64,000 bases of DNA from Lachnospiraceae bacterium (GCA_045629005.1 JAZQQJ010000025.1:1636-65635), one strand, 5' to 3'. Positions 7,744 to 27,830 are shown, numbered from the stretch's first letter. The notes: generated by a model not told the origin, from the letters alone. Made by a program: numbers and translations.

Positions 7744-7754
7744 AGAATTAGTTT

Positions 7755-11972: not shown

Positions 11973-14015
11973 TCAGGCACGCTTTCCGCTTACAATTCTA
12001 TAGTATGTGTTGCTTGTAAGCTTATAAACCGTAATATAGCCTATGGCAAATATGGTTACGCATACAGCAGCAATGCCTATAAGAAGCGGAACGTTATTAA
12101 CATGAAAGAGCTTAAGCATTTCAAACATCATCGGCATTGCGAAAGAGAGATGCACTACCGCAAGGAAGGGAGGGAAGAAAAATACTGTAAGCATCTGTGA
12201 ATTGATGCTCTTCTTAATGTCGTTTTTCGTCATTCCGACCTTCTGCATAATTTCGAAGCGCTTCTGGTCTTCAAAGCCCTCCGTAATCTGCTTGTAATAG
12301 ATTATAAGCACTGTTGCAACGATAAAAACAATGCTAAGCAGGATTCCGATGAAGAAAAGGCCACCATACATCGAGAAGAATTCGGCCTTCTCTGTAGCAA
12401 CATCACCTATCGTACACTCAAGGCTTCCGTCATTCCATCTGATTTCTTCGGAAATGCTCTCTACCGCTTCGCTTATCACTGCATACGTATCGGGTGCACC
12501 GGACATATTCCATCCATAGTACCAGTCCGCTCTTACAGGCACTTTTGTGCTTATTTCCACGTCCGAGAAAACCATCGGAGCAAAGGTGCTGTAGGAATCA
12601 ACAACAATACATATGCTGTTAAACAAAAGCTCTGAGTCTTTAGAATACACATACGGAAAATCCGAAGGATTTTCTTTTACTTTAAATGTTTTCAGTCCCT
12701 CAAACTCAAATGTCGGTAATTTATATTTTCCCGCAGTGCAATAAATTATTATTTCATCAGAAGCAAGAGAATCACTTTTTCCGGTAAGAGCATTGTAATC
12801 TTCAATACTCAGGATGTAGAGGTTCTGGCTCTTCTCAAGCTTTTCCGAAGCCTTCATGGTATCGGCACCATAATTGTCATCATAATGGAAAACGCCGTTT
12901 TCAAATATTCCATCACTCTCAAGGTACCTTGAACTTAATGTCGTAGAAAGATCGACACCCTTTTCGGTAAGGAACGCTTCGTAAGTCTTTGTTTTCTCCG
13001 CAAGTGATTCATCGCTAATGGCGTTAACATCATCAAGATAGGCAACAATATGGCAGTCCCTGGGATACTGACGTGCTATGCTGTCTTCTTTACCGAAGAA
13101 AAGGCAGCCCGAGCCCGTAATCATTACCATAACCATTGTAGCGAGAATACAGATTACCGCAAGACCCGCACCATTTCGCTTCATTCTGTACGTCATTGAA
13201 GATACCGATACAAAATGTTTTGCTTTGTAATAATAACCTTTTCTGCTCTTAAGGAATTTGCAAAGAGCAACAGACCCTGAAACAAACAGAAGATCGGTAG
13301 CTAAAATTACAAGTCCGACTGCAATAAAGAAGCATGTAATAGCTGTAATAGTTGTTCTGCATCTGACTGCGATGTAATACGCAACAGCAAGAATTACAAC
13401 ACCAAGAACCGCAAGCACCCAGTTTGCTTTTACGGGTTTTTCTCCCATGCTCTCATTCTTAACGAGCTCAATAGGGTTTGTTTTCTTCACTGCCCGAAGG
13501 GATCTTAGCAGGATAATAATAAACAGTATTGCATAAAACACAATTGTTCTAATAACCGAAGAAAATTCAAAGGTCAGTCCGTATGTTACTTCCAAATCAA
13601 CAAATCTCAGGAGACACACCTCGGAAAATTTCTCCAGAAGCATTCCGACAGCAAGACCACCTGCGATACAAACACCTGCGGAAATAGCATTTTCCCACAA
13701 AAGAATCTTTGAAAGGTTCTTCTTGTCCATACCAAGAACATTATAAAGTCCAAATTCTTTTAGTCTGCGTTTTATCAGGAAAGAATTGACATAAAGCATG
13801 TATGTAATAGAGAAAAAGAATATTACATACATTCCGAGATAAAGAACAACAACCAATGTTGTGCTCATTTCTGCAACGGACTGCTTTCTTGAAAGCGCAT
13901 CCAAAATGTAATAAATGGATATTACACACATTCCCATAATGAAATAGGGAATGTACAGCTGTTTATTGTTTTTAATGCCGTTCAGGGCAAGTTTTCTGTA
14001 TAATCCCTGTTTCAT
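11973..14015 (-). CDS. BceB-type ABC transporter permease (FtsX domains, large extracellular loop)
   Basis: 680 aa with about 10 TM helices and a roughly 200-aa extracytoplasmic insert. Its start overlaps the stop of the upstream ATPase gene by 1 nt. Confidence 0.85.
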   Translation of the reverse strand: MKQGLYRKLALNGIKNNKQLYIPYFIMGMCVISIYYILDALSRKQSVAEMSTTLVVVLYLGMYVIFFFSITYMLYVNSFLIKRRLKEFGLYNVLGMDKKNLSKILLWENAISAGVCIAGGLAVGMLLEKFSEVCLLRFVDLEVTYGLTFEFSSVIRTIVFYAILFIIILLRSLRAVKKTNPIELVKNESMGEKPVKANWVLAVLGVVILAVAYYIAVRCRTTITAITCFFIAVGLVILATDLLFVSGSVALCKFLKSRKGYYYKAKHFVSVSSMTYRMKRNGAGLAVICILATMVMVMITGSGCLFFGKEDSIARQYPRDCHIVAYLDDVNAISDESLAEKTKTYEAFLTEKGVDLSTTLSSRYLESDGIFENGVFHYDDNYGADTMKASEKLEKSQNLYILSIEDYNALTGKSDSLASDEIIIYCTAGKYKLPTFEFEGLKTFKVKENPSDFPYVYSKDSELLFNSICIVVDSYSTFAPMVFSDVEISTKVPVRADWYYGWNMSGAPDTYAVISEAVESISEEIRWNDGSLECTIGDVATEKAEFFSMYGGLFFIGILLSIVFIVATVLIIYYKQITEGFEDQKRFEIMQKVGMTKNDIKKSINSQMLTVFFFPPFLAVVHLSFAMPMMFEMLKLFHVNNVPLLIGIAAVCVTIFAIGYITVYKLTSNTYYRIVSGKRA

Positions 14016-14773
14016 TATCTGTCTCCTGCCTGAAGCATTGTAAGAGTTTCGCTGACTTTCTGGTAAAGCTGCTCATTTGTCATCTCGCCGCGGAAAAGCT
14101 GATGATATACTTCTCCGTCCTTAATGAAAAGGATGCGGTTTGCATGGCTTGCTGCCTTGACCGAATGTGTAACCATAAGAATAGTCTGCCCGCCTTTGTT
14201 AATCCTTCCGAACATTTTAAGGAGCTCGTCCGTAGCCTTTGAATCAAGTGCACCGGTAGGTTCATCGGCAAGTATAATCTTGGGATTTGTGATAAGTGCT
14301 CTCGCAACTGCCGCACGCTGTTTCTGGCCACCGGACACTTCGTAAGGGTATTTCTTAATAAGATCGGAAATGCCAAGCTGTTCGGCAATAGGCGTAAGTT
14401 TTTCAGCCATCTCACTATGCGGTCTGTTTGCAAGAACAAGAGGTAAATATATGTTGTCCTCCAAAGAGAATGTATCAAGCAAATTAAACTCCTGGAATAC
14501 AAATCCAAGATTATCGCGTCTGAAAGCAGCAACTTCGCTTTCTTTTACTTTGGAAAGGTCGTTTCCGTCAAGAATTACCTGTCCGCCGGTTGCTTTGTCA
14601 AGTGCAGCAAGGATATTGAGGAGTGTTGTTTTTCCGCTTCCCGACTCACCCATGATTGCAACGTACTCGCCGTTCTCAACAGAAAAGCTTACGTTCTTAA
14701 GTGCTTCGACCTGATTCTTTCCAAGTCTTGTTGTATAAATCTTTTTTACATTTTTAACTTCCAGTAAACTCAT
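14015..14773 (-). CDS. BceA-type ABC transporter ATP-binding protein
   Basis: Walker A GESGSGKTT, signature SGGQKQR, Walker B ILADEPTGALD. Track start is 14791, but ATG 14773 has AAGGGA 8 nt upstream. Confidence 0.85.
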   Translation of the reverse strand: MSLLEVKNVKKIYTTRLGKNQVEALKNVSFSVENGEYVAIMGESGSGKTTLLNILAALDKATGGQVILDGNDLSKVKESEVAAFRRDNLGFVFQEFNLLDTFSLEDNIYLPLVLANRPHSEMAEKLTPIAEQLGISDLIKKYPYEVSGGQKQRAAVARALITNPKIILADEPTGALDSKATDELLKMFGRINKGGQTILMVTHSVKAASHANRILFIKDGEVYHQLFRGEMTNEQLYQKVSETLTMLQAGDR

Positions 14774-14926
14774 TATTATGTTCCCTTTCATAGATGTTGT
14801 TACTTTATGCAGCCCTTCAACCCCTCTTCTGCGTGCCGCATCTGACCACCATTATATTTCAAAAAAGAACCGTGCACCATCGAAACGGCTTACAGTTCTT
14901 TTGAATCACCTTACAAAATTGTCACA

Positions 14927-15919
14927 TCATTCATGCACTCGTTTTTCTGTTGGGAATCCGATGCTCACAATTGTTCCTTTGCCACGTTCCGATTCCGCAC
15001 GCAGATTAACGCCAAGATTATTACAGATGCGTCTGCATAAATAAAGGCCCAAACCGCTTGCCTTTTTATCCGAACGTCCGTTAAAACCGGTATAACCCTT
15101 GTCAAATATTCTGGGAACGTCCTCGGGCGCAATGCCTATTCCCGTGTCCTTAATGCATAATGCATATTCATGTTCGTGCTCCTCCGAATATATCTTCACA
15201 GAGCCTTCATGTGTATACTTCAAAGCATTGGAAAGAACCTGTCCGACAACAAAGCTGAGCCATTTGTCATCTGTAAGCACCTGTTTTTCAAGAGGCTCGT
15301 ATTCAAGACTGATTCCTTTGCTTATAAACTGGCCTGCCTGCTTACGGACGGCCTGCTTAACCACCTCATCAATATCGTACTCTTTGAAAACGTAATCCGT
15401 AGTTTCAGAGTCGAGGCGAAGATAACACATAACCATTTCAACATATTGTTCTATGTCGGTCAGGTCTCGGCTTATTTTTCTGGCCAGCGCCGAATCTTCA
15501 TTCTGCAAGGTCAGGCGCATTGATGCAATGGGCGTTTTTATCTGATGAACCCAAAGAGTGTAATAATCAAGCATTTCGGAGAAATTACCATCTGCACTCG
15601 CAACAAACGTTCTCGCATTTTCCTGTAATGCCTCTATGATTTGCTTATAATCATCATCATATGCACCCGTGTAATCCTCAAGTTCATTTAAAAGATTCTC
15701 GGGAATTGTAACGAGTTCCATAAGATGAAGACGTTTCTTTTTGAACTTTGAGTAATCAAACGCTGCAATCACGATAAGAATAACAAGATAAACGAAGGAA
15801 GGGTATAACACCGCTTCCAACGGAAGTTCGTACAATGCCAAACAGGCAAGCTGAAATGCAAAAAGCCCAAACAAAAGCACGGCGGGAAGTATTCTCTTTT
15901 TGATATAGCTCTGTAACAT
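14927..15919 (-). CDS. Intramembrane-sensing histidine kinase (BceS-like)
   Basis: Two N-terminal TM helices with a minimal loop, H-box HQIKTPIASMRL, and ATPase G-boxes DTGIGI and SGLGLYL. Confidence 0.85.
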   Translation of the reverse strand: MLQSYIKKRILPAVLLFGLFAFQLACLALYELPLEAVLYPSFVYLVILIVIAAFDYSKFKKKRLHLMELVTIPENLLNELEDYTGAYDDDYKQIIEALQENARTFVASADGNFSEMLDYYTLWVHQIKTPIASMRLTLQNEDSALARKISRDLTDIEQYVEMVMCYLRLDSETTDYVFKEYDIDEVVKQAVRKQAGQFISKGISLEYEPLEKQVLTDDKWLSFVVGQVLSNALKYTHEGSVKIYSEEHEHEYALCIKDTGIGIAPEDVPRIFDKGYTGFNGRSDKKASGLGLYLCRRICNNLGVNLRAESERGKGTIVSIGFPTEKRVHE

Positions 15920-15931
15920 ATTATCCTCTTT

Positions 15932-16603
15932 TTAGGAAATAATGTATCCCATTCCGACTTTAGTTTCGATAAAGCCGGGAAGCCCGTTCTCCTCAAGCTT
16001 TTTCCTGAGTCTGCCAACATTAACGGTGAGTGTGTTTTCATCTACAAAGGTGTCTGTCTTCCAAAGTGCTTCCATAAGCTTTTCACGGCTTACGGTCTTG
16101 CCCTTGTTCTGCATAAGAATAAGCAGAATGCGGAATTCATTCTTTGAAAGAGCAATCTGTTTGTCATTATACATAAAAGTGTTGTCACCCGTGTTCAGGA
16201 ACGCACCTTTATGCTCAAGAATCGGAACTGAATCCGCGAAATCATATACACGTCTGAGAATTGCCTGGACCTTTGCAACAAGTACATTTCCGTCAAACGG
16301 CTTTGCTATAAAGTCATCGCCTCCCATGTTCATTGCCATAACAATATTCATATTGTCGGAAGCAGATGAAATAAACACAATCGGCACTTTTGAGAGCTTA
16401 CGAATTTCAGAACACCAGTAAAATCCGTTATAAAACGGAAGCCCGATATCCATAAGAACAAGATGCGGCTCCGCCTTGACAAACTCTTCAGTAACCTTGG
16501 AGAAATCATTAATTACGAGAGTTTCAATATTCCACGGCTTAAGGACATTTTTAATGCCTTCGCGAATGCCTTCTTCATCCTCAATAACAAGTACTTTGTA
16601 CAT
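15932..16603 (-). CDS. OmpR-family response regulator (BceR-like)
   Basis: Receiver domain MYKVLVIEDEE...LVLMDIGLP with a C-terminal winged helix. ATG 16603 follows AAGGAAAGGA. The track extension to 16645 lacks an RBS. Confidence 0.85.
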   Translation of the reverse strand: MYKVLVIEDEEGIREGIKNVLKPWNIETLVINDFSKVTEEFVKAEPHLVLMDIGLPFYNGFYWCSEIRKLSKVPIVFISSASDNMNIVMAMNMGGDDFIAKPFDGNVLVAKVQAILRRVYDFADSVPILEHKGAFLNTGDNTFMYNDKQIALSKNEFRILLILMQNKGKTVSREKLMEALWKTDTFVDENTLTVNVGRLRKKLEENGLPGFIETKVGMGYIIS

Positions 16604-16743
16604 ATCAGTATCCTTTCCTTTGACATATCTGTTTAACAATATCACACATTGTAACAGAAAAAAAGAGGGAACCGCCCCAATGTCTTCACAGTTTAAAGAT
16701 ATTGGTTCCGATTCCCTATTAATCGAAATGTTTTACTTTAAAA

Positions 16744-17184
16744 TCATCCGAATCTTCTTACAAGCGTAACGATTACAACAGTTGCCTCAACGATGGCACA
16801 TGTTGTGCCGGTAAACATAACAGCAGTTGCAGCAGTATCTTTTGCATCACGTATGCCGTCTCTTATTTCATCGGTGCAGTAATTGCACAGATATTCAATA
16901 GCTGTGTTTATAAACTCAGAAGCGAGCAGCATAACGGCTGAAAGAAGGAATATAAGCCAGAACTCCACGCTTATTCTGAGCACGGTATTGATAATGAGAA
17001 AGGCAACAGCAAAGAACATATACTTACGAAGATTCTTCTCTGTTTTAAAGGACTGCTTCAGGCCTGCGACCGCACAACATAAACTCTCGTAAAAGTTCAT
17101 ATTCTTCATCTCATGCCCGTAATGATATTCTTTTCCCGCTTTTTTCATGTTTTTCCCCAACACATATTTTTTTGCAGTATACAA
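16744..17184 (-). CDS. dgkA: DgkA-family lipid kinase (diacylglycerol/undecaprenol kinase)
   Basis: Three TM helices and the family motif SEFINTAIE...AKDTAATAV. The exact start codon is uncertain. Confidence 0.7.
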   Translation of the reverse strand: MYTAKKYVLGKNMKKAGKEYHYGHEMKNMNFYESLCCAVAGLKQSFKTEKNLRKYMFFAVAFLIINTVLRISVEFWLIFLLSAVMLLASEFINTAIEYLCNYCTDEIRDGIRDAKDTAATAVMFTGTTCAIVEATVVIVTLVRRFG

Positions 17185-17204: not shown

Positions 17205-18899
17205 CTATTTGTATTCAACCGCATTTACTATTGTAGTGTTTATTTCTCCTGACGCAACAGAATATTCAAAAGTGTATGATATTACGTCATTAAGTTTGAT
17301 TCCGGCCAGTGTATTTCCGTATGCATCCGTCTCCTCCGATGCAATTCTCGAAGCAATATCCGTTGCAATAAGCTCGGATATTTTTTTAGACCCCTGGAAT
17401 GAGGAATGAAGGCTGTCAACGCTCTTCTCCGTCTTTGCATTATACAGATGATACGTCTGTTCAACGTATGTTCTTCCTACGATACTGTACCATTCACCGG
17501 TCATCTTCGCATTGTCAATGAGGAAAACACCCTTTTCCTTTGCAAGCTCACGTATTGTCTCTGCAAACGGATAAAGTCCGCTTCCTTCAGGCTCGTCGTG
17601 CTCACCAAGATCAGCCCCGTCCTTGCTCTTCCAAAACTTTGCAGTCTGCTGGCTTGTCACAAGCACAGGAACAACCTTATGTTCCAGACACCAATCAATC
17701 ATAATCGAAAGATATTCTTTCATTTCCTCGGTATTGCTGTATGTTCTGTCGTTTATTCCCTCCTGGATTATGAAATAATCGCCGGGCTTTGCATTGTTTG
17801 TAATTCCCTTAAAATACATTTCATACCAGCTTCTTGCATATGTTCCGCCTGCTCCGAGCGAGTCAACAATTACTTCATCGGTTGTATAATGGTGGAACAG
17901 CTGTCCCCATCCGGTCTGTGCCGTTCCTGCGGCAAACTCGGCCTCGTCAAGTCTGGGATAATACGTCTGTATCGTAGAATCGCCGGCGATATAAATGTGT
18001 GTCTTTCTGGGAATAAGCTGAGAAACCCTTCTGAATTCGATATAGCACATATTCCCGTCACCAATGCTGGAGAGTCTGGCTTCTCCACCTTCGACAACAA
18101 TATCCTGTGCACTGAATATTTTGTCTTCTCCTTTTCTGTCCGTTCCGCCGATTCCGACATTAACGCCAAATGAGCCTTCATTTATTCTCAAGGTGGATCT
18201 GCCCATTTCTGCCTTTTTCACGGTTACATCGTACATACCGTCGGGAATGGCCGCAACAAAACAATACGAATCTGTTCGGAGGTTTACACCTCTCGGATGC
18301 GTATCGACCTTTCCCTCAAAGCCGGCATCTTTTGTAGCATCATAAACCTCGGTCCAAGGGATATTAACATAACCGTCTTCCGCAGATGATGTATCCTTTC
18401 CGAGGCTGTATTTAAGAACAACAGACACTTCGTATTCAAGAACGGGCTTTTCAAAATCTACATGTACAACGCCATCTGCAGCCTTAACAACGACCTGCGT
18501 ATAATCATTCTCACCGAATACAGCCGTTACAAGGTAATCCGCATTCACACCGAAGTTCTTCATCGCAGAAACATCAAGTTCAACATATGTCACGGTATTT
18601 CCGGACTCTGCTTTTCCAACGATGGTAAACTCGTCCATATTGTATTGTCTTGGAGCAGGAGTACTCGTAGGCGGTTCGGACGTTGGTTCCTCCACAATTT
18701 CCGGTGCTTCTGTTACTGCAGCAGGTGCCTCTGTTAACACCGCATCCGGTGCTTCAGTCATTATTACCGCATGCGTAACATCTGCTGTGGGTGTAACAGT
18801 CTGCGTTCCTGTGTCTCCTTTACATCCCGTAAAAACTACGGCAGCAAAAACTGCTGCCGTAACAAAAATCAGATTTTTAAACTGCCTTTTCAGCATCAT
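17205..18899 (-). CDS. SGNH/GDSL esterase lipoprotein, CE12 rhamnogalacturonan-acetylesterase-like C-terminal domain
   Basis: Lipobox VFTGC follows MMLKRQFKNLIFV. ATG 18899/18896 is preceded by AAGGGG. SGNH blocks present: IYIAGDSTIQTY, GGTYARSW, QEGINDR, DSLH. The track N-terminal extension is rejected. Confidence 0.8.
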   Translation of the reverse strand: MMLKRQFKNLIFVTAAVFAAVVFTGCKGDTGTQTVTPTADVTHAVIMTEAPDAVLTEAPAAVTEAPEIVEEPTSEPPTSTPAPRQYNMDEFTIVGKAESGNTVTYVELDVSAMKNFGVNADYLVTAVFGENDYTQVVVKAADGVVHVDFEKPVLEYEVSVVLKYSLGKDTSSAEDGYVNIPWTEVYDATKDAGFEGKVDTHPRGVNLRTDSYCFVAAIPDGMYDVTVKKAEMGRSTLRINEGSFGVNVGIGGTDRKGEDKIFSAQDIVVEGGEARLSSIGDGNMCYIEFRRVSQLIPRKTHIYIAGDSTIQTYYPRLDEAEFAAGTAQTGWGQLFHHYTTDEVIVDSLGAGGTYARSWYEMYFKGITNNAKPGDYFIIQEGINDRTYSNTEEMKEYLSIMIDWCLEHKVVPVLVTSQQTAKFWKSKDGADLGEHDEPEGSGLYPFAETIRELAKEKGVFLIDNAKMTGEWYSIVGRTYVEQTYHLYNAKTEKSVDSLHSSFQGSKKISELIATDIASRIASEETDAYGNTLAGIKLNDVISYTFEYSVASGEINTTIVNAVEYK

Positions 18900-21105
18900 T
18901 CTTTTCCCCTTCGCCTTTGCTCTTCTGCATTTCAAGCTGCGCGGTAACGAGGCCGTAGTAAATACCCTTTTTCTCCATAAGCTCGTTGTGCGTACCAACC
19001 TCAGCAATGTGGTGTGCATCAATTACAACAAGTCTGTCAGCATTCTTAAGTGTTGAAAGTCTGTGTGCAATAGCAAACGTTGTCTTGCCCTCAATCAAAC
19101 GGTCGAGTGCGGTCTGGATAAGGTATTCGCTCTCTGTATCAAGGCTTGCCGTTGCTTCATCAAGAATGAGAAGCTTGGGGTTATTAAGTATCGCACGTGC
19201 TATTGCGATACGCTGTCTCTCACCACCGGAAAGGTTGTAGCCTCTTTCACCTACATAGGTGTTGTAACCGTCAGGTGTCTTACAGATGAAATCGTGTGCA
19301 TTGGCCATTTTCGCTGCCTGAATTATCTCCTCAATAGTAGCATCAGGCTTTGCAAAACGCAAGTTGTTTAGGATAGTGCCTGAGAAAAGGAATGTTTCCT
19401 GAAGAACAACACCAATCTGCGAATGGTAGTTCTCTGCTTTAATGTCCTTGATATTTATTCCATCAACAAGGATTTCTCCGTCATCAATATCATAAAGGCG
19501 CATTACAAGGTTAATAAGTGTTGATTTTCCTGTTCCGCTCGCGCCTACAAGGCCAATCATTTCACCTTTCTTAACCTTAAGATTGATATGCTCGAGGACA
19601 GGTTCATAGCTCTTGTATCCGAAGCATACATCCTTAAACTCAAAATCTCCCTGTATCTCATGCTCCTGAGCTTTCGACTTATCAACAATCTTAGGCTCCT
19701 GTTTCATAACATCGCTGATACGTTCGATACTTGTGATCATATTCATAAGTATTCTGGGAAGATTTGAAAGCCAGCCGACGTACATGTACATCATTGATGC
19801 ATAACTTACAAACTGCATAAGCTCGCCGACAGTCTTTGTATCGCTCAGAACGTTCTTACCACCCACGTACGTAATGATGTATGTACCGATACCCATCATA
19901 AACTGCATTGTCGGGAAGAATACCGCCCAGAAAACTTCGTTTCGTTTCTGTGTAACTGCATAGCTTTCAGCAGTTTCGCTGAAATGCTTTGTTTCCTGCT
20001 CTTCTTTGCCGTAGGACTTAACTACAGCCATACCTGTAATAACATCACGAAGGTTTGAATTGATTTTATCCTCTTTTTTACGTTGCATATGGAACCGTCT
20101 GTGAATGTTCTTTCTGAATGCAACGGAAATAGTTATTGAAACAGGAATAAAAACAAACGATAAAAGTGCCAGCTTCCAGTCAAGGATAAGCATGTATGTA
20201 ACGCTGAAAATAAGCATAATCGCAACCGAGAAAAGGTTGCAGAATGCATCAGCCATAAAGTCGCTGACTCTTCTTGTATCGCCCGTAACTCTGTTCATAA
20301 GGTCTCCGGGCTTTCTGTCGGAAATGAAAGCCAAAGAAAGACTCTGAACCTTTGCGTAAAGCTTCTTTCGAAGATCCATGCTTATTGTGGAGCCAAGCTT
20401 CGCGCAAAGATAGCTTTTTGCCACATTGACCACAAGTGAAAAGATGGTAACGGCAAGCATTCCGCCAAGGCATATCGCAGCCAGAGACATTGTTCCTTTT
20501 CTGTCAAAAAGGACATCATCGACAAGCTTCTTCTGAATTTCGGGATTCATAAGCGACGTGACTGAAGAAAGAATCATTAGTATAAAAATGATTACAAGCC
20601 TGCCTTTATAAGGCTTAAGCAGCGTAAAGAAGTCGTTTATGAGTCCTTCTTTTTTGTGTGAGCAGTATGGGCACTCTTTTGTGCCGGGAAGAGCTCTGCC
20701 GCACTTCGGACACATCTTCTCATATTCTTCGCTTTCAACCTTTCGCGTACCACCTGCAAGCAACTCTCTTGCGCCCTTTGCAACATATGCATATCTTGCA
20801 AGATGTTTGCCCGAATAGCGTACAACAAGCTGTGCTTCATCGTTTGATTTAAGAACAACGAAAAGAACTCCGCAGGATATTTCTGTCTCAGCTTTAATAT
20901 CCGTAATGTCAGAGAGCAGAATTGTCTTTTTAAGAACGTCCTTTTCCAGAACAAAAATCCTCTGTGTCGTTACAACAACAAACGAACCGGAAAGCCAGCC
21001 CCCCTCGTCATCAATGTCGTAGGGCACGCAATAATATATCTCTTCACCGTTTTTAAGGGAGAGCAGTTTTTTATTTTGTTCCGATAAACCGTAATCGAGT
21101 ATCAA
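18877..21105 (-). CDS. ABC exporter half-transporter B with N-terminal PH-like domain and zinc ribbon
   Basis: TTG start with GGGAGG 7 nt upstream. The first ~125 aa are soluble (GSFVVVTTQRIFVLE). Next comes CPKCGRALPGTKECPYC, then 6 TM helices, then an NBD (GASGTGKST, LSGGERQR, LLILDEATASLD). Confidence 0.85.
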   Translation of the reverse strand: MILDYGLSEQNKKLLSLKNGEEIYYCVPYDIDDEGGWLSGSFVVVTTQRIFVLEKDVLKKTILLSDITDIKAETEISCGVLFVVLKSNDEAQLVVRYSGKHLARYAYVAKGARELLAGGTRKVESEEYEKMCPKCGRALPGTKECPYCSHKKEGLINDFFTLLKPYKGRLVIIFILMILSSVTSLMNPEIQKKLVDDVLFDRKGTMSLAAICLGGMLAVTIFSLVVNVAKSYLCAKLGSTISMDLRKKLYAKVQSLSLAFISDRKPGDLMNRVTGDTRRVSDFMADAFCNLFSVAIMLIFSVTYMLILDWKLALLSFVFIPVSITISVAFRKNIHRRFHMQRKKEDKINSNLRDVITGMAVVKSYGKEEQETKHFSETAESYAVTQKRNEVFWAVFFPTMQFMMGIGTYIITYVGGKNVLSDTKTVGELMQFVSYASMMYMYVGWLSNLPRILMNMITSIERISDVMKQEPKIVDKSKAQEHEIQGDFEFKDVCFGYKSYEPVLEHINLKVKKGEMIGLVGASGTGKSTLINLVMRLYDIDDGEILVDGINIKDIKAENYHSQIGVVLQETFLFSGTILNNLRFAKPDATIEEIIQAAKMANAHDFICKTPDGYNTYVGERGYNLSGGERQRIAIARAILNNPKLLILDEATASLDTESEYLIQTALDRLIEGKTTFAIAHRLSTLKNADRLVVIDAHHIAEVGTHNELMEKKGIYYGLVTAQLEMQKSKGEGEKNDAEKAV

Positions 21106-21117
21106 GTGAATGCCTCC

Positions 21118-21663
21118 CTACAGGAACAGATCGAGCTTTCTGCGCTCGTTTGGTGTAAGTTTCATAATATCAGGAATTTCAAATCTGTTTTCATCCAAAT
21201 CCGAAATGATTATACGTGTTTCAGAGAGATGTACTACGTCATTTCCGCCCATATGAATGGCGAACTTGCACTCTCCTCTGTCCGTTTCAACATCAAAGTA
21301 AGCAAAGCCATGCCTATCCTTAATGTTGTATATTTTAGTGATGACAGGCGTGAAATAACGCAGATTCAGCTGTTCACGAATCATCGCAAGCGTATCCTTG
21401 TCGAGCTTGGCCAAATCCTCGATAATACCGATTTCCTTTGAACGTTCTTCGCAGGTTCTTACGGAAATGTAGTGCTCGGGGTCCGTAAACGGGAACATCC
21501 TGACAATCTGCACCCTAGGGTATTCTGCCTCGGGGAGCTTAAGTCTGACAAAACCGCCTTCTGTCCTTGAAAACTTTGCAGTCTTCGAGTCAAGGATGTT
21601 GGTTTTCAGCATTTCCTCTGTTTCTTTCTCCATCTGTTCAAGATCAAATTCTTTTTCTTCCAT
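21118..21663 (-). CDS. DUF1854-like soluble protein
   Basis: 181 aa. FSRTEGGFVRLKL...RMFPFTDPEHYISVR matches my recollection of PF08909, a family that co-occurs with ABC exporter pairs. Needs HMM confirmation. Confidence 0.55.
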   Translation of the reverse strand: MEEKEFDLEQMEKETEEMLKTNILDSKTAKFSRTEGGFVRLKLPEAEYPRVQIVRMFPFTDPEHYISVRTCEERSKEIGIIEDLAKLDKDTLAMIREQLNLRYFTPVITKIYNIKDRHGFAYFDVETDRGECKFAIHMGGNDVVHLSETRIIISDLDENRFEIPDIMKLTPNERRKLDLFL

Positions 21664-21758
21664 TGTTTTCCTCTGTATGTTTATGCATTATTCTCTAAAA
21701 GCAGGTACGTTGGATACTTACGTATCATCCCAAGGTCATATGCCCTGTATGCCTTATA

Positions 21759-24275
21759 TCATTCCCTCAGTGCAAGCGCCTTGGTCTGCAGTTCCATAAG
21801 TTTATAGTAGGTACCGTGAAGTTCCTCAAGCTCCTTGTGCGTACCACGTTCGGTAATCTCACCGTTGTCGATTACACAAAGGAAGTCAGCATCACGAAGC
21901 GTTGAGAGACGATGCGCTATTGATATTGTCGTACGTCCCTTAACAAGGTAGTTTATGGACTCCTGAATAGCTCTTTCGGTTTCGGTATCAACCGATGCGG
22001 TAGCTTCATCGAGAATAAGTATCTTCGGGTTTGCAAGGATTGCACGCGCTATTGATATACGCTGACGCTCACCACCGGAAAGCTCCCGTCCGGATGAACC
22101 CACAACAGTATTATAGCCGTCGGGCATTCTGAGAATGAAATCATGCGCACTGGCAAGCTTTGCGGCTCTGATGATATCTGCCTTTGAAGCGTTCGGATTA
22201 GCATATGCGATGTTTTCCTCAATAGTACCCATGAAGATGTATGTCTCCTGGGAAACCATTGCTACATTCTTTCTGAGATCGCTGAAGGAAAGATTCCTTA
22301 TATCAATTCCATCAAAGAGAATGCTACCCTCCTGAGGGTCGTACATACGTGAAATGAGGTTAACAAGCGTTGTTTTACCTGCGCCGGATCGTCCGACAAT
22401 TCCAAGCATGCTTCCTTCAGGAATCAGAAGGCTTACATTCTTAAGGACAGGCCTGTTTATTTCATAGCCGAAGGTAACATTTCTGAGTTCGATTTCACCT
22501 CTGGGCTCCTTCAAAGGAACCGGGGTCTCAGGCTCGACAATTTCAGGAATTGCATCGATAATCTCAAACATACGCTGTGCAGCGTTCATGCTGTCTGCCC
22601 ACGACTGGAACACTCTTGTCATAAATCTCATCGGACCGTCAAGCTGTCCGGCATAACCGACGAAGGTAACAAGAATACCAAGTGCCATTGTGCCGCGCTT
22701 CAAAATAAAGTATGCGCCCAAAAGCCATATGATAAGTGACGAAGCACTATGTGAAAGCTGGAATACAACAGAGAAAACATTCTGGATACGTACAATAGTC
22801 ATTTCAGTATCCTTAAGTCTTCCGTTTACGGTGTGGAATCTGTTTTCCTCTTTCCTCTCCTGACCGAAGGCCTTAACTACTCTCGCACCCGTAAGGTTAT
22901 CGTTAACCTGGTTGTTTACGGAACGCTCTGCCCTGTGTCTTCTGCCGTATGCATTCCAGAATTTCGGACGATACTTGAAGCTGAAAATGAATGCAATCGG
23001 AAGCAGAAGCATGGAAATCACAGTCATCTGCCAGTTAATCGTAAACATAACCACAAGAGTGGATATGAGTGTAACCGAGTGAATGAAAATATAAGGCACA
23101 TCATCAATAAAGAAGCCTGTTACACGCTCTGCATCGTTCAGTACACGTGTCATCAGTGTACCGGTCTGTCTGTTCTTGAAAAAGCTTATCGAAAGCTTTC
23201 CCATTGCATTGAAGATGCTCTTCTTAATGTCACATACAACATCCGCAACAATCTTTACATTCATTGTGCCCTGCAGAATGGAAAGCACCTGTCCTGTAAC
23301 CTTTGCAGCAAACATCGTAAGAATAATAAGGAGAAGCGCTAAAAGATATTCGCCGTGCGGGATGCCGAAGTTTGCAAGCAGTTCATCATTTTTGTTAAGA
23401 ACGTAATCGTAAAGAATCGTTCCGTTTAAATACGGCCATACAAGGTTAAGCAGCGCCACAAGAACATATGTGACAACAAGTATTACCATGCGCCATTTAT
23501 AAGGCGAGAAGAATTTCAGGACGCGGAAGAAAATGGACCTTCTGTCCAAACAGTAAGGACAAACCTTACGTTCCGGATTCGGATACATTCTGCCGCATTT
23601 AGGGCAGTACTCGCTGTTCTCTTCGTCTCCTTTGCCACCAGGTCCGTGACCACCGAAACCTCCGGGACCACCCGGACCACCAAAGCCACCCGGACGCGGA
23701 CCACCAAAGCCTCTTCCCGGACCGCCGAAACCACGTCCGCCAAAGCCTCCGAAGCCTCCGAAGCCTCCGCCATTTTCTTCTTTTCCAGGCAGACGGGCAA
23801 ATTCACGTGAAATACGGAACATGCTCTTTCTGTAAAGGTTTGAGAACACGGTGACGGTATGGTCGATATCATCATTGTCACGCAAAACAAGAAGGCTGCA
23901 GGCAACCTGTGGCTCTATCATTAATTTCTTATAGTCAGCTGTCGGAAGGCGCTTCACCTGCCAATTATGTTTCTCTTCGCTGTCGTCCTTCCTGATGACT
24001 GCTCCCTTAAACAGATGGACACGCCCCTTTTCGCATGGACATGAAAAGATGTAGATGGCTTCTTCGGTAAGAACAACATAGCCATCTTCGTAAGCACATT
24101 CTGTATTCATATCGGATGCTGAAGCGGCAAGAACTTTTTCGTTCTCTCCACCCTGTTCGGAAATAAGCTGCTTTATCTGCTTCGGGAGCTTGACTTCCTT
24201 ACGTGGGGATTCTTCGAATGGCGGTTTATCCGGTGTTAATGCATTATTTTCTGTTGGAAGTTTTTCTTCTGCCAT
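21759..24275 (-). CDS. ABC exporter half-transporter A with N-terminal PH-like domain, Gly-rich tract and zinc ribbon
   Basis: ATG 24275 preferred over track GTG 24323. Order is a soluble N-domain, a GGFGG/RG tract, CPKCGRMYPNPERKVCPYC, a TMD, then an NBD (GRSGAGKTT, LSGGERQR, ILILDEATASVD). Confidence 0.85.
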   Translation of the reverse strand: MAEEKLPTENNALTPDKPPFEESPRKEVKLPKQIKQLISEQGGENEKVLAASASDMNTECAYEDGYVVLTEEAIYIFSCPCEKGRVHLFKGAVIRKDDSEEKHNWQVKRLPTADYKKLMIEPQVACSLLVLRDNDDIDHTVTVFSNLYRKSMFRISREFARLPGKEENGGGFGGFGGFGGRGFGGPGRGFGGPRPGGFGGPGGPGGFGGHGPGGKGDEENSEYCPKCGRMYPNPERKVCPYCLDRRSIFFRVLKFFSPYKWRMVILVVTYVLVALLNLVWPYLNGTILYDYVLNKNDELLANFGIPHGEYLLALLLIILTMFAAKVTGQVLSILQGTMNVKIVADVVCDIKKSIFNAMGKLSISFFKNRQTGTLMTRVLNDAERVTGFFIDDVPYIFIHSVTLISTLVVMFTINWQMTVISMLLLPIAFIFSFKYRPKFWNAYGRRHRAERSVNNQVNDNLTGARVVKAFGQERKEENRFHTVNGRLKDTEMTIVRIQNVFSVVFQLSHSASSLIIWLLGAYFILKRGTMALGILVTFVGYAGQLDGPMRFMTRVFQSWADSMNAAQRMFEIIDAIPEIVEPETPVPLKEPRGEIELRNVTFGYEINRPVLKNVSLLIPEGSMLGIVGRSGAGKTTLVNLISRMYDPQEGSILFDGIDIRNLSFSDLRKNVAMVSQETYIFMGTIEENIAYANPNASKADIIRAAKLASAHDFILRMPDGYNTVVGSSGRELSGGERQRISIARAILANPKILILDEATASVDTETERAIQESINYLVKGRTTISIAHRLSTLRDADFLCVIDNGEITERGTHKELEELHGTYYKLMELQTKALALRE

Positions 24276-24383
24276 ATTCCAGACCCTTTTCAAAAAAATA
24301 GTTATTTCAAAAATACACTGCACTTCGCGAGCGCTGCTCGTTCAGTTTGCGCTGTGGCATCAGATGCCTTAACTGCTACAGAC

Positions 24384-24517
24384 GCTGCAAGCCTTACTAT
24401 CAAGTCCTTACGGTCTTGATAGTAAGAGCTGGCGCTCTACAAACTCATATGAAACAATGTGCTTTTGTAAGCAAGCTTACAGCGCACATTGTTTCATATG
24501 AGTTCTATGCTTGCAGC
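24384..24517 (-). promoter_or_regulatory. Highly structured 5' leader element of the ABC-DUF1854 operon
   Basis: Nested perfect helices. The outer 9-bp helix pairs 24384-24392 with 24509-24517. It encloses a 12-bp hairpin (24393-24404/24415-24426) and a 21-bp hairpin (24442-24462/24484-24504). Confidence 0.5.
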
Positions 24518-24547
24518 TATTAGTATGTACGTTCTTTTATATATGGT

Positions 24548-24575
24548 ATTGTAGCACTTATTTGCGTTATGTCAT
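24548..24575 (-). promoter_or_regulatory. Candidate sigma-A promoter of the ABC-DUF1854 operon
   Basis: Minus strand reads ATGACA (24575..24570), a 16-nt spacer, then TGcTACAAT, an extended -10 ending at 24548. By-eye match in an AT-rich region. Confidence 0.35.
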
Positions 24576-24697
24576 CTTATTTTTATATAAATATTGCTCA
24601 CATTTATACCAATAGCAATATTTGATAGGTGTAGTGTTAAAACCTGAGGCAATCGTTGAATTCAGCGATACCGTTACTTTCTTTTTATTCGCTTATC

Positions 24698-25138
24698 TTA
24701 TCTTGCCGGCTCAAGTACTTTAATGTATTTATTGTATTCACAAAGTTTGGCTATAAATTCATCTTCTCTTTGCGGTGATATGTAGGCTTTTTCTGTTACG
24801 GAACCTTTATAATATACAATCTCAAGGCGAACGGCCGAGCCTGCTCCGGATGCAATGAACGAGATTACTTTTTTCACCGAACAAATTGAATTAATTTTGA
24901 GGTTTGACGTGGTTGGCCCAAGACATATTTTTATTGTATCCTCAGTTAATACGTAATAATTGCGAACTAAAAACCATAACACAAAACCTATTATCGCAGC
25001 GCTCATGATTATTATCGGGATGAATTCTCCCGGATTGCTATAGTCAAGTATTGTGCAAAGTCCTACAAGCATAAATGTTACAAGTGCAAATGTTGTCCAC
25101 ATAATAACTCCGATTTTTCCTTTAAATTTCATATTCAT
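24698..25138 (-). CDS. Membrane protein with bacterial PH (bPH_2/DUF304-like) domain
   Basis: 146 aa with two TM helices followed by YYVLTEDTIKICLGP...RLEIVY, the pattern of YdbS/YdbT-type membrane-flanked PH domains. Confidence 0.5.
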   Translation of the reverse strand: MNMKFKGKIGVIMWTTFALVTFMLVGLCTILDYSNPGEFIPIIIMSAAIIGFVLWFLVRNYYVLTEDTIKICLGPTTSNLKINSICSVKKVISFIASGAGSAVRLEIVYYKGSVTEKAYISPQREDEFIAKLCEYNKYIKVLEPAR

Positions 25139-25273
25139 TCCTCACTTTCTCATACTCATATTATTTCAAATTTGTACTCTTTCAAGCTTAATGCATCATT
25201 AACGAATTACATCAACAATTGAATTGCCGTACTTCAGGCAAATAGTATGTCCGGTTGTTTATATGGTATCGTG

Positions 25274-25684
25274 CTAAGCTTTTGCTTCCAACAAGAGTTC
25301 CGCAAACGCTTCCGCCAGAAGAATCATCCAGACAAGCACCAGTCCGAATACAACGAACATCTCTGTCATTCCCGTGCACAATCCGATTACCGCAAAAACC
25401 GCGATTACTATAAGTGCTATAGAGCGTGCCTTAACTCTCCACCCGGATGCTATTTCAAACTGGTATTCGTCAAACCTTTTCTGCTTTTTCACACACAAGA
25501 TAGTAACTGCTTCTGAACCGATAAAAACAACTGTAGCAATCCCCCACCACACATCATAGGGCAGGTTCAAACCGATGTATATGCCTCTCGATGCGCTGTC
25601 GCCAAGGTATATCAGCAAAAAAACGATTATCGCAGAAACCATTTCGAAGAAAATAACATTATTGACCAACATTCGTTTATTCAT
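25274..25684 (-). CDS. Small 4-TM membrane protein, partner of the XRE regulator
   Basis: 136 aa with four hydrophobic spans. Has a 4-nt overlap with the upstream HTH gene. Confidence 0.6.
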   Translation of the reverse strand: MNKRMLVNNVIFFEMVSAIIVFLLIYLGDSASRGIYIGLNLPYDVWWGIATVVFIGSEAVTILCVKKQKRFDEYQFEIASGWRVKARSIALIVIAVFAVIGLCTGMTEMFVVFGLVLVWMILLAEAFAELLLEAKA

Positions 25685-25887
25685 CTTCTCTCGCTCCTTT
25701 CAAAATCAAATAATTCGGTAATAGCGGTATCAAAATACTTTGCGAGGTCGTAGGCCAGCCAAAGCGACGGATCGAACTTACCGGACTCTATGGCAATAAT
25801 GGCCTGCCGTGAAACCCCGACAGCCTGTCCGAGTTCCTGCTGGGTTATTTTTCTTTTTTCACGATATTCTCTGACCTTATTTACCAA
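25681..25887 (-). CDS. XRE-family helix-turn-helix transcriptional regulator (68 aa)
   Basis: ITQQELGQAVGVSRQAIIAIESGKFDPS is a classic Cro/C1 HTH. Confidence 0.85.
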   Translation of the reverse strand: MVNKVREYREKRKITQQELGQAVGVSRQAIIAIESGKFDPSLWLAYDLAKYFDTAITELFDFERSERR

Positions 25888-26109
25888 GAATTCCTTCCTC
25901 CTGTCCTTGCAACAAAAATGTTATGTGCCACTCTGCTGCAATATTTTTCGCTTTTCATTCATTGCGAATTTAGCAACGAAAACCTCCGTGCTTTACAAAT
26001 CCGATTCGCTTTATCACGCTCAATGTAACGTCAACCTTACATCAAGCATAGCGCCCTTATATGTATTTGTCAACAATTCTTTGTAAGGTTAGCATTACAT
26101 TTTTTCAAA

Positions 26110-26186
26110 ATGTCCACCACACCCCGTCCCTAGGCAGGCAGAGATGTCCACCACACCCCGTCCCTGGTGGACACCCCTGGTGGACA
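26110..26186 (+). repeat. Array of four TGTCCACC/GGTGGACA half-sites (two 22-bp direct repeats plus two inverted copies)
   Basis: ATGTCCACCACACCCCGTCCCT occurs at 26110-26131 and again at 26144-26165 (perfect). CCCTGGTGGACA occurs at 26162-26173 and 26175-26186. GGTGGACA is the reverse complement of TGTCCACC. Confidence 0.8.
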
Positions 26187-26196
26187 TCCTGCACTG

Positions 26197-26225
26197 TTGA
26201 TTTTTCCGAGGCACATTGTTATACT
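26197..26225 (+). promoter_or_regulatory. Candidate sigma-A promoter of the DUF5662-like/WYL operon
   Basis: TTGATT (26197-26202), a 17-nt spacer, then TATACT (26220-26225). About 20 nt upstream of the RBS and ATG 26248. Confidence 0.55.
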
Positions 26226-26247
26226 TCATGGAGAAAAGGAGTCTATT

Positions 26248-26772
26248 ATGCATCCGTTTAAACATTTCAGAACAATAACAAAGCATCGTCATGCCGTAAT
26301 TCGTCACTGTTTCAAGGCCGGTATCGGTTTTCAGGGACTTTTTCACGATTTGTCAAAATATACACCCACTGAATTCATTCCAGGCGCACGCTATTATCAG
26401 GGAACACGTTCCCCTAACGAAGGTGAGCGTGAAGCCATCGGCTATAGCACTGCATGGATTCACCATCAGGGACGTAACAAGCATCATTTTGAATATTGGA
26501 AGGATTATGATTACGTTACAAAGCTCATAAAGCCTGTTCCGATGCCTGACAAATACATTAAGGAAATGTTCTGTGACAGGGTTGCTGCCTCCAAAATCTA
26601 CAAGGGTAAGGATTATACCGATGATGCGCCTTTGCAATATCTTTTAAGAGGAAACAAAACAAGATTTATTCATCCGGAGACACAGGCAAAAATCGAGTTT
26701 TTATTGACAATGCTTGCAGAAAAAGGCGAAAAGGAAACCTTCAGATATATTAGAACAAGGAAGACTCTATGA
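26248..26772 (+). CDS. DUF5662-like His-rich protein (possible metal-dependent hydrolase)
   Basis: ATG 26248 follows GAGAAAAGGAG. MHPFKHFRTITKHRHAVIRHCF...LFHDLSKYTPTEF...WIHHQGRNKHHFEYW matches my recollection of the DUF5662 family. The track extension from 26167 runs through the repeat array and is rejected. Confidence 0.55.
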   Translation: MHPFKHFRTITKHRHAVIRHCFKAGIGFQGLFHDLSKYTPTEFIPGARYYQGTRSPNEGEREAIGYSTAWIHHQGRNKHHFEYWKDYDYVTKLIKPVPMPDKYIKEMFCDRVAASKIYKGKDYTDDAPLQYLLRGNKTRFIHPETQAKIEFLLTMLAEKGEKETFRYIRTRKTL

Positions 26773-27830
26773 AAGACGACAAACCGAAGAAACTAATCAT
26801 TCTGTATATATTGGAAATTCTCAGGCGTTACACAGATGATACGCATTTTTTGAATAACAAGGATATCCTTGATATTCTCAAGAGAGATTACGACATGGCT
26901 GTCGATCGTAAATCCGTCAAAAATAACCTCGACACGCTTATTGATGCGGGGTTTGACATCCTTTACGACGAGGTTCCCCGTGTATATTCGGCCGGCGAAG
27001 AAGAAACACCTGATGATGCGGACGAAAGAAACATCCGTAAAAACTTCCGTATTGAAAGGGATATAACCGACAGTGAGCTTCGTCTGTTAATCGACTCAAT
27101 ACTTTTCTCCAAAAACATCCCCGTAAAACAGCGTACGAGCCTCATACAGAAGCTGGAGGGGCTTTCCAGTACATATTTTCGTTCCAGCATAAAGCACATT
27201 GCCACAGTGCCTGTTTCCGGAGAAAAGAACAAGGAACTGTTTTACAACATCGATATTATCGATGAAGCTATTTCCGAAGGCAAACAGATCGAATTCAATT
27301 ATCTCGAATATCACACCGACCAGAAGCTTCATCCTCGTATTACAAGAAATGCAAAGGTGCGCCGTTTTTCCGTCAACCCTTATTACATCGCTGCTACTAA
27401 CGGCAGGTATTATCTCATCTGCAACAACACATGGTTTGACAATGTGACGCACTTCCGTATCGACCGCATTACAAACATCCGCATTCTCAAAGCCGACGTT
27501 AAACCGGTTACGGAAGTAAAAGGGCTGGAGCATGGTTTCTCGCTTTCAAAGCACATGGCGGAACACATTTATATGTTCTCCGATGATCCCGTGAGAGTCA
27601 TCTTCCGTTTAAAGAAAACTCTTCTTTCAGAGCTTTTTGACTGGTTTTCCGGTGATATCACATTTACTGATGAAACAGAAGATGAAGTTACGGTTTCCGT
27701 TTTTGCCAGCGAGCAGTCAATGGAGCTATGGGCAGTACAATTTGCCAAATACGTCACCGTTCTTTCTCCCAAATCGCTTGTCGAAAGTGTAAAGAATACA
27801 CTTTCGGAGGCTGTTGAAAGATATAAATAA
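26769..27830 (+). CDS. WYL-domain transcriptional regulator (wHTH-WYL-WCX architecture)
   Basis: N-terminal winged HTH (LIILYILEILRRYTDD...KSVKNNLDTL). Central WYL-type segment (FSVNPYYIAATNGRYYLICN...FRIDRITNIRIL). ATGA overlap with the upstream gene. Confidence 0.75.
   Translation: MKDDKPKKLIILYILEILRRYTDDTHFLNNKDILDILKRDYDMAVDRKSVKNNLDTLIDAGFDILYDEVPRVYSAGEEETPDDADERNIRKNFRIERDITDSELRLLIDSILFSKNIPVKQRTSLIQKLEGLSSTYFRSSIKHIATVPVSGEKNKELFYNIDIIDEAISEGKQIEFNYLEYHTDQKLHPRITRNAKVRRFSVNPYYIAATNGRYYLICNNTWFDNVTHFRIDRITNIRILKADVKPVTEVKGLEHGFSLSKHMAEHIYMFSDDPVRVIFRLKKTLLSELFDWFSGDITFTDETEDEVTVSVFASEQSMELWAVQFAKYVTVLSPKSLVESVKNTLSEAVERYK

Follow-up and report, generated by a model that had tools for sequence, protein, structure and literature searches.

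The 64,000-nucleotide stretch of DNA from a Lachnospiraceae bacterium (GCA_045629005.1 JAZQQJ010000025.1:1636-65635; hereafter, the window) carries on its minus strand a compact cassette of three genes, which code for an ATP-binding cassette (ABC) half-transporter (referred to below as A), a small protein of the DUF1854 family, and a second ABC half-transporter (B). The sequence reading of the window places a gene for an SGNH-type lipoprotein next in the same direction. In both half-transporters, the type IV transmembrane domain (TMD) and the nucleotide-binding domain (NBD) are preceded by an N-terminal extension that consists of a PH-like domain and a four-cysteine (C4) zinc ribbon. The components of the cassette, with positions counted from the first nucleotide of the window, are as follows.

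21759-24275, minus strand: half-transporter A, 838 aa from an ATG start, consisting of a PH-like domain, a variable linker, a zinc ribbon, a type IV TMD, and an NBD
23796-24197, minus strand: PH-like module of A, approximately residues 27-160, supported by hhalign comparison with the N-terminal profile of B
23616-23795, minus strand: linker of A, residues 161-220, a low-complexity segment rich in Gly, Phe, and Pro that starts with GGGFGGFGGFGGRGFGGPGRGFGGP
23550-23606, minus strand: C4 zinc ribbon of A, CPKCGRMYPNPERKVCPYC, residues 224-242, located directly before the elbow helix and the first transmembrane helix (TM1)
21118-21663, minus strand: DUF1854 protein (PF08909), 181 aa, soluble
18877-21105, minus strand: half-transporter B, 742 aa from a TTG start, consisting of a PH-like domain, a zinc ribbon, a type IV TMD, and an NBD
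20752-21105, minus strand: PH-like domain of B, residues 1-118, supported by the AlphaFold model and by the Foldseek and bPH_3 matches
20662-20712, minus strand: C4 zinc ribbon of B, CPKCGRALPGTKECPYC, residues 132-148, with the CxxC...CxxC motif

Both A and B show the domain succession of type IV (ABCB-like) half-transporters, with a PF00664 TMD followed by a PF00005 NBD. In Pfam searches, ABC_membrane was matched by residues 264-549 of A (E=1e-41) and 170-441 of B (E=1e-46), and ABC_tran by residues 611-760 of A (E=7.5e-36) and 504-653 of B (E=3.9e-34). Among the proteins of known structure, the best matches to this core are ABCB1, TM287/288, and Sav1866, with TM_0288 and Sav1866 being the best single-chain bacterial ones (E=1e-111 to 1e-113). 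The motifs read from the sequences of A (GRSGAGKT, LSGGE, ILILDE, and AHRLST) and B (GASGTGKS, LSGGE, LLILDE, and AHRLST) include a canonical Walker A, signature, Walker B Asp-Glu pair, and H-loop His in each half, with no degenerate ATP site, and these NBD motif blocks are 0.91 to 0.98 identical across the orthologues. A and B would pair as a heterodimeric exporter with two catalytically competent ATP sites.

The cassette is not peculiar to this genome. A motif-based scan of one genome per GTDB species revealed 284 genomes encoding a DUF1854 relative, and the set of 83 loci analyzed here comprises those from the best 80 of these genomes and three metagenome contigs. The best 80 genomes belong almost entirely to Lachnospiraceae and related Clostridia from the gut and rumen and carry the heterodimeric form of the cassette. 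In 79 of the 83 loci, the DUF1854 gene has an A-like ABC gene upstream and a B-like ABC gene downstream, both encoding zinc ribbons; the deviations arise from three genes that run off a contig end and from one locus (L071) in which only the B-like gene is present. The gene order A-DUF1854-B that had been proposed for the window in the first-pass annotation is thus a recurrent one, and the description of the 181-aa protein as a dedicated partner of the two ABC proteins is borne out as well.

The fold of the N-terminal module is best defined in B. The AlphaFold model of B residues 1-165, built from an alignment of 16 orthologues, has a mean predicted local distance difference test score (pLDDT) of 85.7, with values of approximately 86 to 96 per 10-residue block over residues 1-120. 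It contains seven strands, a helix at residues 99-116, the zinc-ribbon region, and a short helix at residues 155-163, which can be read as the elbow helix before TM1; the predicted structure thereby shows the seven-stranded sandwich and C-terminal helix of the PH-like superfold. In a Foldseek comparison of this module with the PDB, PH-superfold proteins accounted for almost all of the top 50 matches listed (best E=7.7e-4, for 6b3y; probabilities of 0.96 to 1.00), including the PH-like domain of DENND3, the bacterial PH protein 3dcx (E=9.7e-4), the PH domain of GRK2, and PTB and GLUE domains. At the sequence level, the window B protein scores 19.9 bits against bPH_3 (PF14470), under the gathering threshold of 23, and matches below that threshold were also obtained for 9 of the 16 B orthologues (E<=0.1; best E=4.3e-5), while the zinc-ribbon family DZR was matched by 15 of the 16. 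A search of PDB sequences returned no chain matching the N-terminal module, the exporter structures aligning to B only from residue 156 on. A candidate catalytic or metal-binding site in the B module, formed by the invariant residues Cys78, His101, Glu73, and Asp30, was considered and rejected, as the Cys and the His are not kept in A or in distant members.

The module of A is homologous to that of B. The profiles of the two N-terminal regions align with an hhalign probability of 98.4% (E=8e-15 over 110 columns), the A version having an insertion of approximately 25 residues, and the zinc ribbons align with each other at E=1e-7. A PH-like fold followed by a C4 ribbon, for which the first-pass annotation had relied on short sequence signatures, is therefore supported on both halves, in B by the model and in A by homology to B, and the CxxC motifs map exactly to 23550-23606 and 20662-20712, where the ribbons had been placed. 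The linker that separates the PH-like module of A from its ribbon is 12 to 76 aa long across the orthologues (median, 22; gap fraction, 0.5 to 0.85) and is Gly-rich only in the window and in one other locus (L018). Gly-rich tails similar to this linker were observed at the N-terminus of the DUF1854 protein in other species (e.g., P0018 and P0027).

Two features of the window might be taken to suggest that the extensions are upstream sequence mis-called as coding: the start codon of B is TTG, and the Gly-rich low-complexity stretch in A could look noncoding. The comparison of orthologues speaks for the opposite conclusion. Where complete, the stop-to-stop open frames extend over 726 to 859 codons in the A-like genes and 728 to 784 codons in the B-like genes. 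Residues 21-160 of A and 1-160 of B are nearly gap-free across 76 to 78 distinct orthologues, in which identity to the window protein is 0.2 to 0.7 per 20-residue block of the N-terminal region, close to that of the least conserved transmembrane blocks; the frames are thus not only open but conserved at the protein level. The full C-x2-C...C-x2-C motif is kept in 80 of the 83 upstream and 82 of the 83 downstream ABC genes, with the consensus CPxCGxMYPxxxRKxCPxC in the A-like and CxxCxRALPGTxxCPxC in the B-like proteins. The independent NCBI gene calls give the same 838-, 181-, and 742-aa proteins, with the same TTG start for B; the B orthologues found in a search with full-length B are called at 725 to 761 aa; and the closest relative (L004) has kept both the ribosome-binding site of A and the context of its ATG. 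In addition, the B module is modeled with the high per-block confidence given above, and the most similar NCBIfam model (see below) itself contains the N-terminal module. The extensions can accordingly be regarded as genuine on both halves: mis-called starts can be excluded, and the artifact reading is so improbable as to be effectively refuted.

The assignment of the 181-aa protein to a DUF1854-like family was confirmed by its match to PF08909, which covers positions 1-130 of the 130-position profile with E=3.7e-38 and 130.8 bits (gathering threshold, 26.8). This protein is the most conserved accessory part of the system, with a mean column identity of 72% over 19 orthologues. Its AlphaFold model (mean pLDDT, 66) shows two beta-rich halves, each with a terminal helix. 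A Foldseek comparison of the model with the PDB yielded nothing significant, the best matches being HIN/OB-type, MalK, and PotA chains (E=0.03 to 0.9); no PDB chain matched DUF1854 in a sequence search either. The idea that DUF1854 is a diverged PH module or an internal duplication was dropped, since the hhalign probabilities of 0.1 to 1.8% offered no support for it. Comparison with the PADLOC defense models gave no match to DUF1854 and only generic NBD similarity (mad3 and mad8) for the ABC proteins, none of it specific to the N-terminal modules. One 930-aa protein (P0222) is a natural fusion of PH, zinc-ribbon, ABC, and C-terminal DUF1854 regions, which indicates only that an ABC protein and DUF1854 act together. 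Within the cassette, DUF1854 would be a soluble third subunit that docks on the cytoplasmic (NBD) side of the exporter.

The best NCBIfam model for both A and B is NF052233 (cyanophycin metabolism-associated ABC transporter), and the best one for the DUF1854 protein is NF052234. The scores of B (553.3 bits) and A (541.4 bits) do not reach the curated cut-off of 880 for NF052233, nor does the window DUF1854 (90.3 bits) reach the cut-off of 150 for NF052234; the Ralstonia proteins used as positive controls score 1460 bits (ABC) and 234.2 bits (DUF1854), respectively. Residues 15-734 of B align to positions 25-754 of the 766-position NF052233 model, which thus includes the N-terminal module, while in A the alignment starts only at the zinc ribbon (model position 136), although the N-termini of A and B are homologous. 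In an exhaustive phmmer search, the B module retrieved 192 clusters (50% identity level). Of the near-full-length ones, 19 were examined, and with three exceptions, these consist of ABC proteins of 724 to 751 aa. The 10 module-bearing clusters that were scored against NCBIfam are also under the NF052233 cut-off, so that the module-bearing exporters form a family wider than the curated equivalog.

A true member pair was located by tblastn of plasmid records in Ralstonia wenshanensis p56D2 (KOL96_03340 and KOL96_03345), where a single 768-aa ABC gene is followed by DUF1854 and lies divergently adjacent to two cphA genes. The window system resembles this pair in having the PH-like module and C4 ribbon before the TMD and NBD and in the adjacency of the DUF1854 gene. 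Unlike it, the window has DUF1854 between the genes for two paralogous half-transporters and not beside a single ABC gene, an insertion in the PH module and a hypervariable linker in A, no cphA nearby, and a Gram-positive host, the Lachnospiraceae bacterium, in place of a betaproteobacterium. A tblastn search with both Ralstonia CphA proteins (E<=1e-3), which covered the 64-kb window and 7 kb on either side of the cassette in the 83 loci, returned no CphA homologue, and no cphA-like domains were detected in the window open reading frames that were scanned. The Ralstonia and window DUF1854 proteins are 29% identical, and A, B, and the Ralstonia ABC protein share 36% identity in each pairwise comparison. 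This equal distance indicates that the duplication that gave rise to A and B is old and that the two are ancient paralogues. On this evidence, the window system is apparently a heterodimeric sister of the homodimeric, cphA-linked ABC/DUF1854 pair, uncoupled from a neighboring synthetase gene. The locus L071 (Candidatus Howiella sp., positions 7001-9779), in which DUF1854 is followed by a B-like ABC gene with no A-like gene upstream, may represent a homodimeric form in Firmicutes that stands between the cassette of Lachnospiraceae and the pair of proteobacteria.

Price et al. (bioRxiv 10.1101/072470) reported that DUF1854, the ABC gene, and cphA/cphA' are cofit in Acidovorax and Cupriavidus and suggested that DUF1854 belongs, as a subunit, to an ABC efflux system for an amino-acid polymer; no other work on DUF1854 and no characterized cyanophycin exporter was found in literature searches. 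The architecture, which the first-pass annotation had set apart from that of standard type IV exporters, therefore has a precedent: NF052233 and NF052234 share it, and the efflux role of DUF1854 has been published. The two models are the top ones for all three proteins, but the scores lie under both cut-offs, and that kind of transporter is itself uncharacterized. With the architecture already cataloged and a functional hypothesis in print, the system is not categorically new; the heterodimeric, cphA-unlinked form of Lachnospiraceae and related Clostridia is, as far as literature searches show, undescribed.

Around the cassette, the window contains several further genes, of which those next to it are as follows.

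17205-18899, minus strand: SGNH/GDSL lipoprotein gene with lipobox FTGC (Lipase_GDSL_2, E=5.9e-8)
24698-25138, minus strand: bPH_4 membrane protein, 146 aa, upstream of A (Pfam bPH_4, E=7e-13)
25274-25684: multipass membrane protein, 136 aa, with no family assignment

The genes flanking the cassette vary from clade to clade, with no neighbor family present in more than 15 of the 83 loci. The most common flanking cluster (15 loci) reflects shared synteny within one clade, and its immediately adjacent member looks, from its sequence, like an aspartyl-tRNA synthetase. The start of the SGNH gene, at approximately 18899, overlaps the end of B by 23 nt, and the two genes may be translationally coupled; the lipoprotein weakly resembles the pectin acetylesterase PaeY (E=2.4e-8), a resemblance in keeping with the genes for plant-fibre degradation in the window (GH10, CBM2, and RGL11). 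Its gene was found only in the three closest of the 83 loci. Homologues of the bPH_4 protein and of the adjacent 136-aa membrane protein were found in none of them (0 of 83). DNA comparison revealed that a segment of approximately 1.9 kb (24293-26192), holding a Clostridiales-1 RNA leader, the bPH_4 gene, and the membrane-protein gene, is missing from the two closest relatives (L004 and L005), in which the start of A adjoins a DUF5662 gene. No clear terminal repeats were found for this segment, which looks like a lineage-specific insertion. The lipoprotein, which the first-pass annotation had placed in the operon, and the upstream bPH gene, to which it had drawn attention, are on this distribution lineage-specific neighbors, outside the system.

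Several other features of these flanks were recorded. The leader corresponds to an Rfam RF01699 (Clostridiales-1 RNA) match at 24386-24515 on the minus strand, between the bPH_4 gene and the start of A, which spans the full model with 48.2 bits (gathering threshold, 48; E=1.2e-9) and was missed by the whole-window gathering scan. The 270-nt leader upstream of A folds strongly, with a minimum free energy of -100.8 kcal/mol (z=-7.3), and positions 24442-24504 within it form a perfect 21-bp hairpin; at 24575-24548, the sequence resembles a promoter with an extended -10 element. A perfect 22-nt direct repeat, ATGTCCACCACACCCCGTCCCT, occurs at 26110-26131 and 26144-26165 (34 nt from start to start), directly upstream of the DUF5662 gene (26167-26772), after which comes the gene of a WYL-domain regulator (26769-27830); the repeat might serve as an operator. 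Immediately downstream of the cassette, at 11973-16645 on the minus strand, are the genes for an FtsX-family permease (680 aa), an ABC ATPase, a histidine kinase, and an OmpR-type response regulator, a module that resembles the Bce type by domain content, and these are followed by a DAGK-family gene at 16744-17184.

The cassette was compared with several known types of exporter. C39 exporters (PCAT1 and SunT-type proteins, and HlyB with its C39-like domain) are likewise type IV exporters with an extra cytoplasmic domain before TM1, and in the bacteriocin and HlyB-type exporters, the N-terminal C39 and C39-like domains serve in the recognition of peptide or protein substrates. Unlike the papain-like fold of C39, the N-terminus in the window proteins is PH-like and followed by a zinc ribbon. 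The NCBIfam models for HlyB and bacteriocin ABC transporters match the cores of A and B (E=1e-80 to 1e-117), no Pfam match to Peptidase_C39 was found in either protein, and no gene for a substrate peptide, membrane fusion protein, or immunity protein was found adjacent to the cassette. Having two half-transporter genes close together is a property shared with the heterodimeric exporters TM287/288, BmrCD, LmrCD, and EfrCD, which usually have one degenerate ATP site; unlike the window system, they have neither the PH/zinc-ribbon module nor a DUF1854 partner. Finally, bacterial PH-domain proteins DdE and DdF are needed to export a leaderless bacteriocin, and their gene cluster also encodes an ABC transporter (PMC8657885). 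The window system resembles them and YdbS/YdbT in the tie between bacterial PH-like domains and ABC-linked export, which in their case is that of a cytoplasmic peptide. However, YdbS/YdbT and DdE/DdF are separate membrane proteins with PHb2 (bPH_2) domains, whereas the PH-like domain of the window is fused to the exporter and is closest, with a subthreshold score, to bPH_3.

Taken together, these data give about an even chance to the reading in which A, DUF1854, and B constitute one self-contained ABC export machine, the substrate of which is probably a peptide or a peptide-like polymer. From the known topology of type IV exporters, the N-termini should be cytoplasmic, so that the two PH/zinc-ribbon modules would lie at the membrane-cytoplasm interface, beside the TMDs and elbow helices. 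The PH-like modules, along with DUF1854, would recruit a substrate of cytoplasmic origin or pass it on, and ATP hydrolysis at both sites would power its export to the cell envelope or the medium; such substrate capture would parallel that by the C39 and C39-like domains. A peptide or polymer is favored as the substrate because the sister system is genetically tied to polymer synthetases, because PH-superfold domains commonly bind peptides, and because of the role of PH-domain proteins in leaderless-bacteriocin export and of N-terminal C39 and C39-like domains in substrate recognition. The recurrence of A-DUF1854-B with both ribbons in 79 of 83 loci from different species, in which the flanks differ, argues for a self-contained system. 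Several observations weigh against this reading. No substrate or synthetase gene is linked to the cassette, and no neighbor is conserved across the 83 loci; the scores under the NF052233 and NF052234 cut-offs do not permit the function of that family to be assigned to the window proteins; any contacts that DUF1854, the NBDs, and the PH modules make with one another are putative; DUF1854 was modeled with low confidence, and its model resembles no known structure significantly; and PH-like folds also bind lipids and serve regulatory roles. A more specific version of the proposal can be put forward only tentatively: a hitherto unrecognized Lachnospiraceae export route for a cytoplasmic peptide or a nonribosomal amino-acid polymer might exist, in which the PH-like domains and the DUF1854 adaptor capture the substrate in a manner analogous but unrelated to that of C39 domains, the two PH modules (that of A with the insertion, that of B without it) being specialized for different steps.

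The main rival explanation is regulatory gating; ligand- or partner-gated export had also been conjectured in the first-pass annotation. In this case, A and B would form an MsbA-like or multidrug-type exporter of lipids, glycolipids, or drugs, and the modules and DUF1854 would turn its ATPase on or off, with no contact with the substrate, in response to a cytoplasmic ligand, a partner protein, or the lipid state of the membrane. The next-best NCBIfam matches for both halves are indeed the models for MsbA and its relatives, but their scores are well under those of NF052233. The importer ATPases MalK, MetN, and ModC have C-terminal regulatory domains, and it is at the C-terminus of the NBD, where such domains sit, that DUF1854 is found in the P0222 fusion; the weak Foldseek matches of the DUF1854 model likewise include MalK and PotA chains (E=0.4 to 0.9), but these matches are not significant and come from a model of low confidence. 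Gating would also agree with the absence of a linked substrate gene in the 83 loci and with the conservation of DUF1854, which exceeds that of the PH modules and would suit a protein that interacts with the highly conserved NBDs. The homologous proteobacterial system, in turn, is genetically tied to polymer synthetases and not to lipid genes. Regulatory gating appears rather unlikely. A still less probable option is that the cassette exports cyanophycin itself, or a cyanophycin-like Asp/Arg polymer, made by a cphA product encoded elsewhere in the genome. It would be in line with NF052233 and NF052234 being the top models for A, B, and DUF1854 and with the entire PH/ribbon/ABC/DUF1854 architecture being common to the cphA-linked Ralstonia pair. 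However, the scores are far from those of that family (541 to 553 bits versus 880 and 90 versus 150), there are two paralogous ABC genes, not one, the searches of the window and of the 7-kb surroundings of the cassette in the 83 loci found no CphA homologue, and according to a 2023 study, no process for exporting cyanophycin is known (PMC9974463). This option is accordingly considered improbable.

The preferred reading, that of a peptide or polymer exporter with a built-in accessory module, concerns a poorly charted group of transporters. PDB searches returned no solved structure of an ABC exporter that has either the N-terminal PH-like/zinc-ribbon module or DUF1854 as a subunit, and to our knowledge, no such exporter has a biochemically defined substrate. 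The only functional data on the DUF1854/ABC kind are the cofitness profiles from two Betaproteobacteria (10.1101/072470). With the substrate identified, a new kind of accessory domain of type IV exporters would be defined, and it would become clearer what the cyanophycin-synthetase-linked system exports; a product, secreted or located in the envelope, that is shared by major fibre-degrading gut anaerobes might also come to light.

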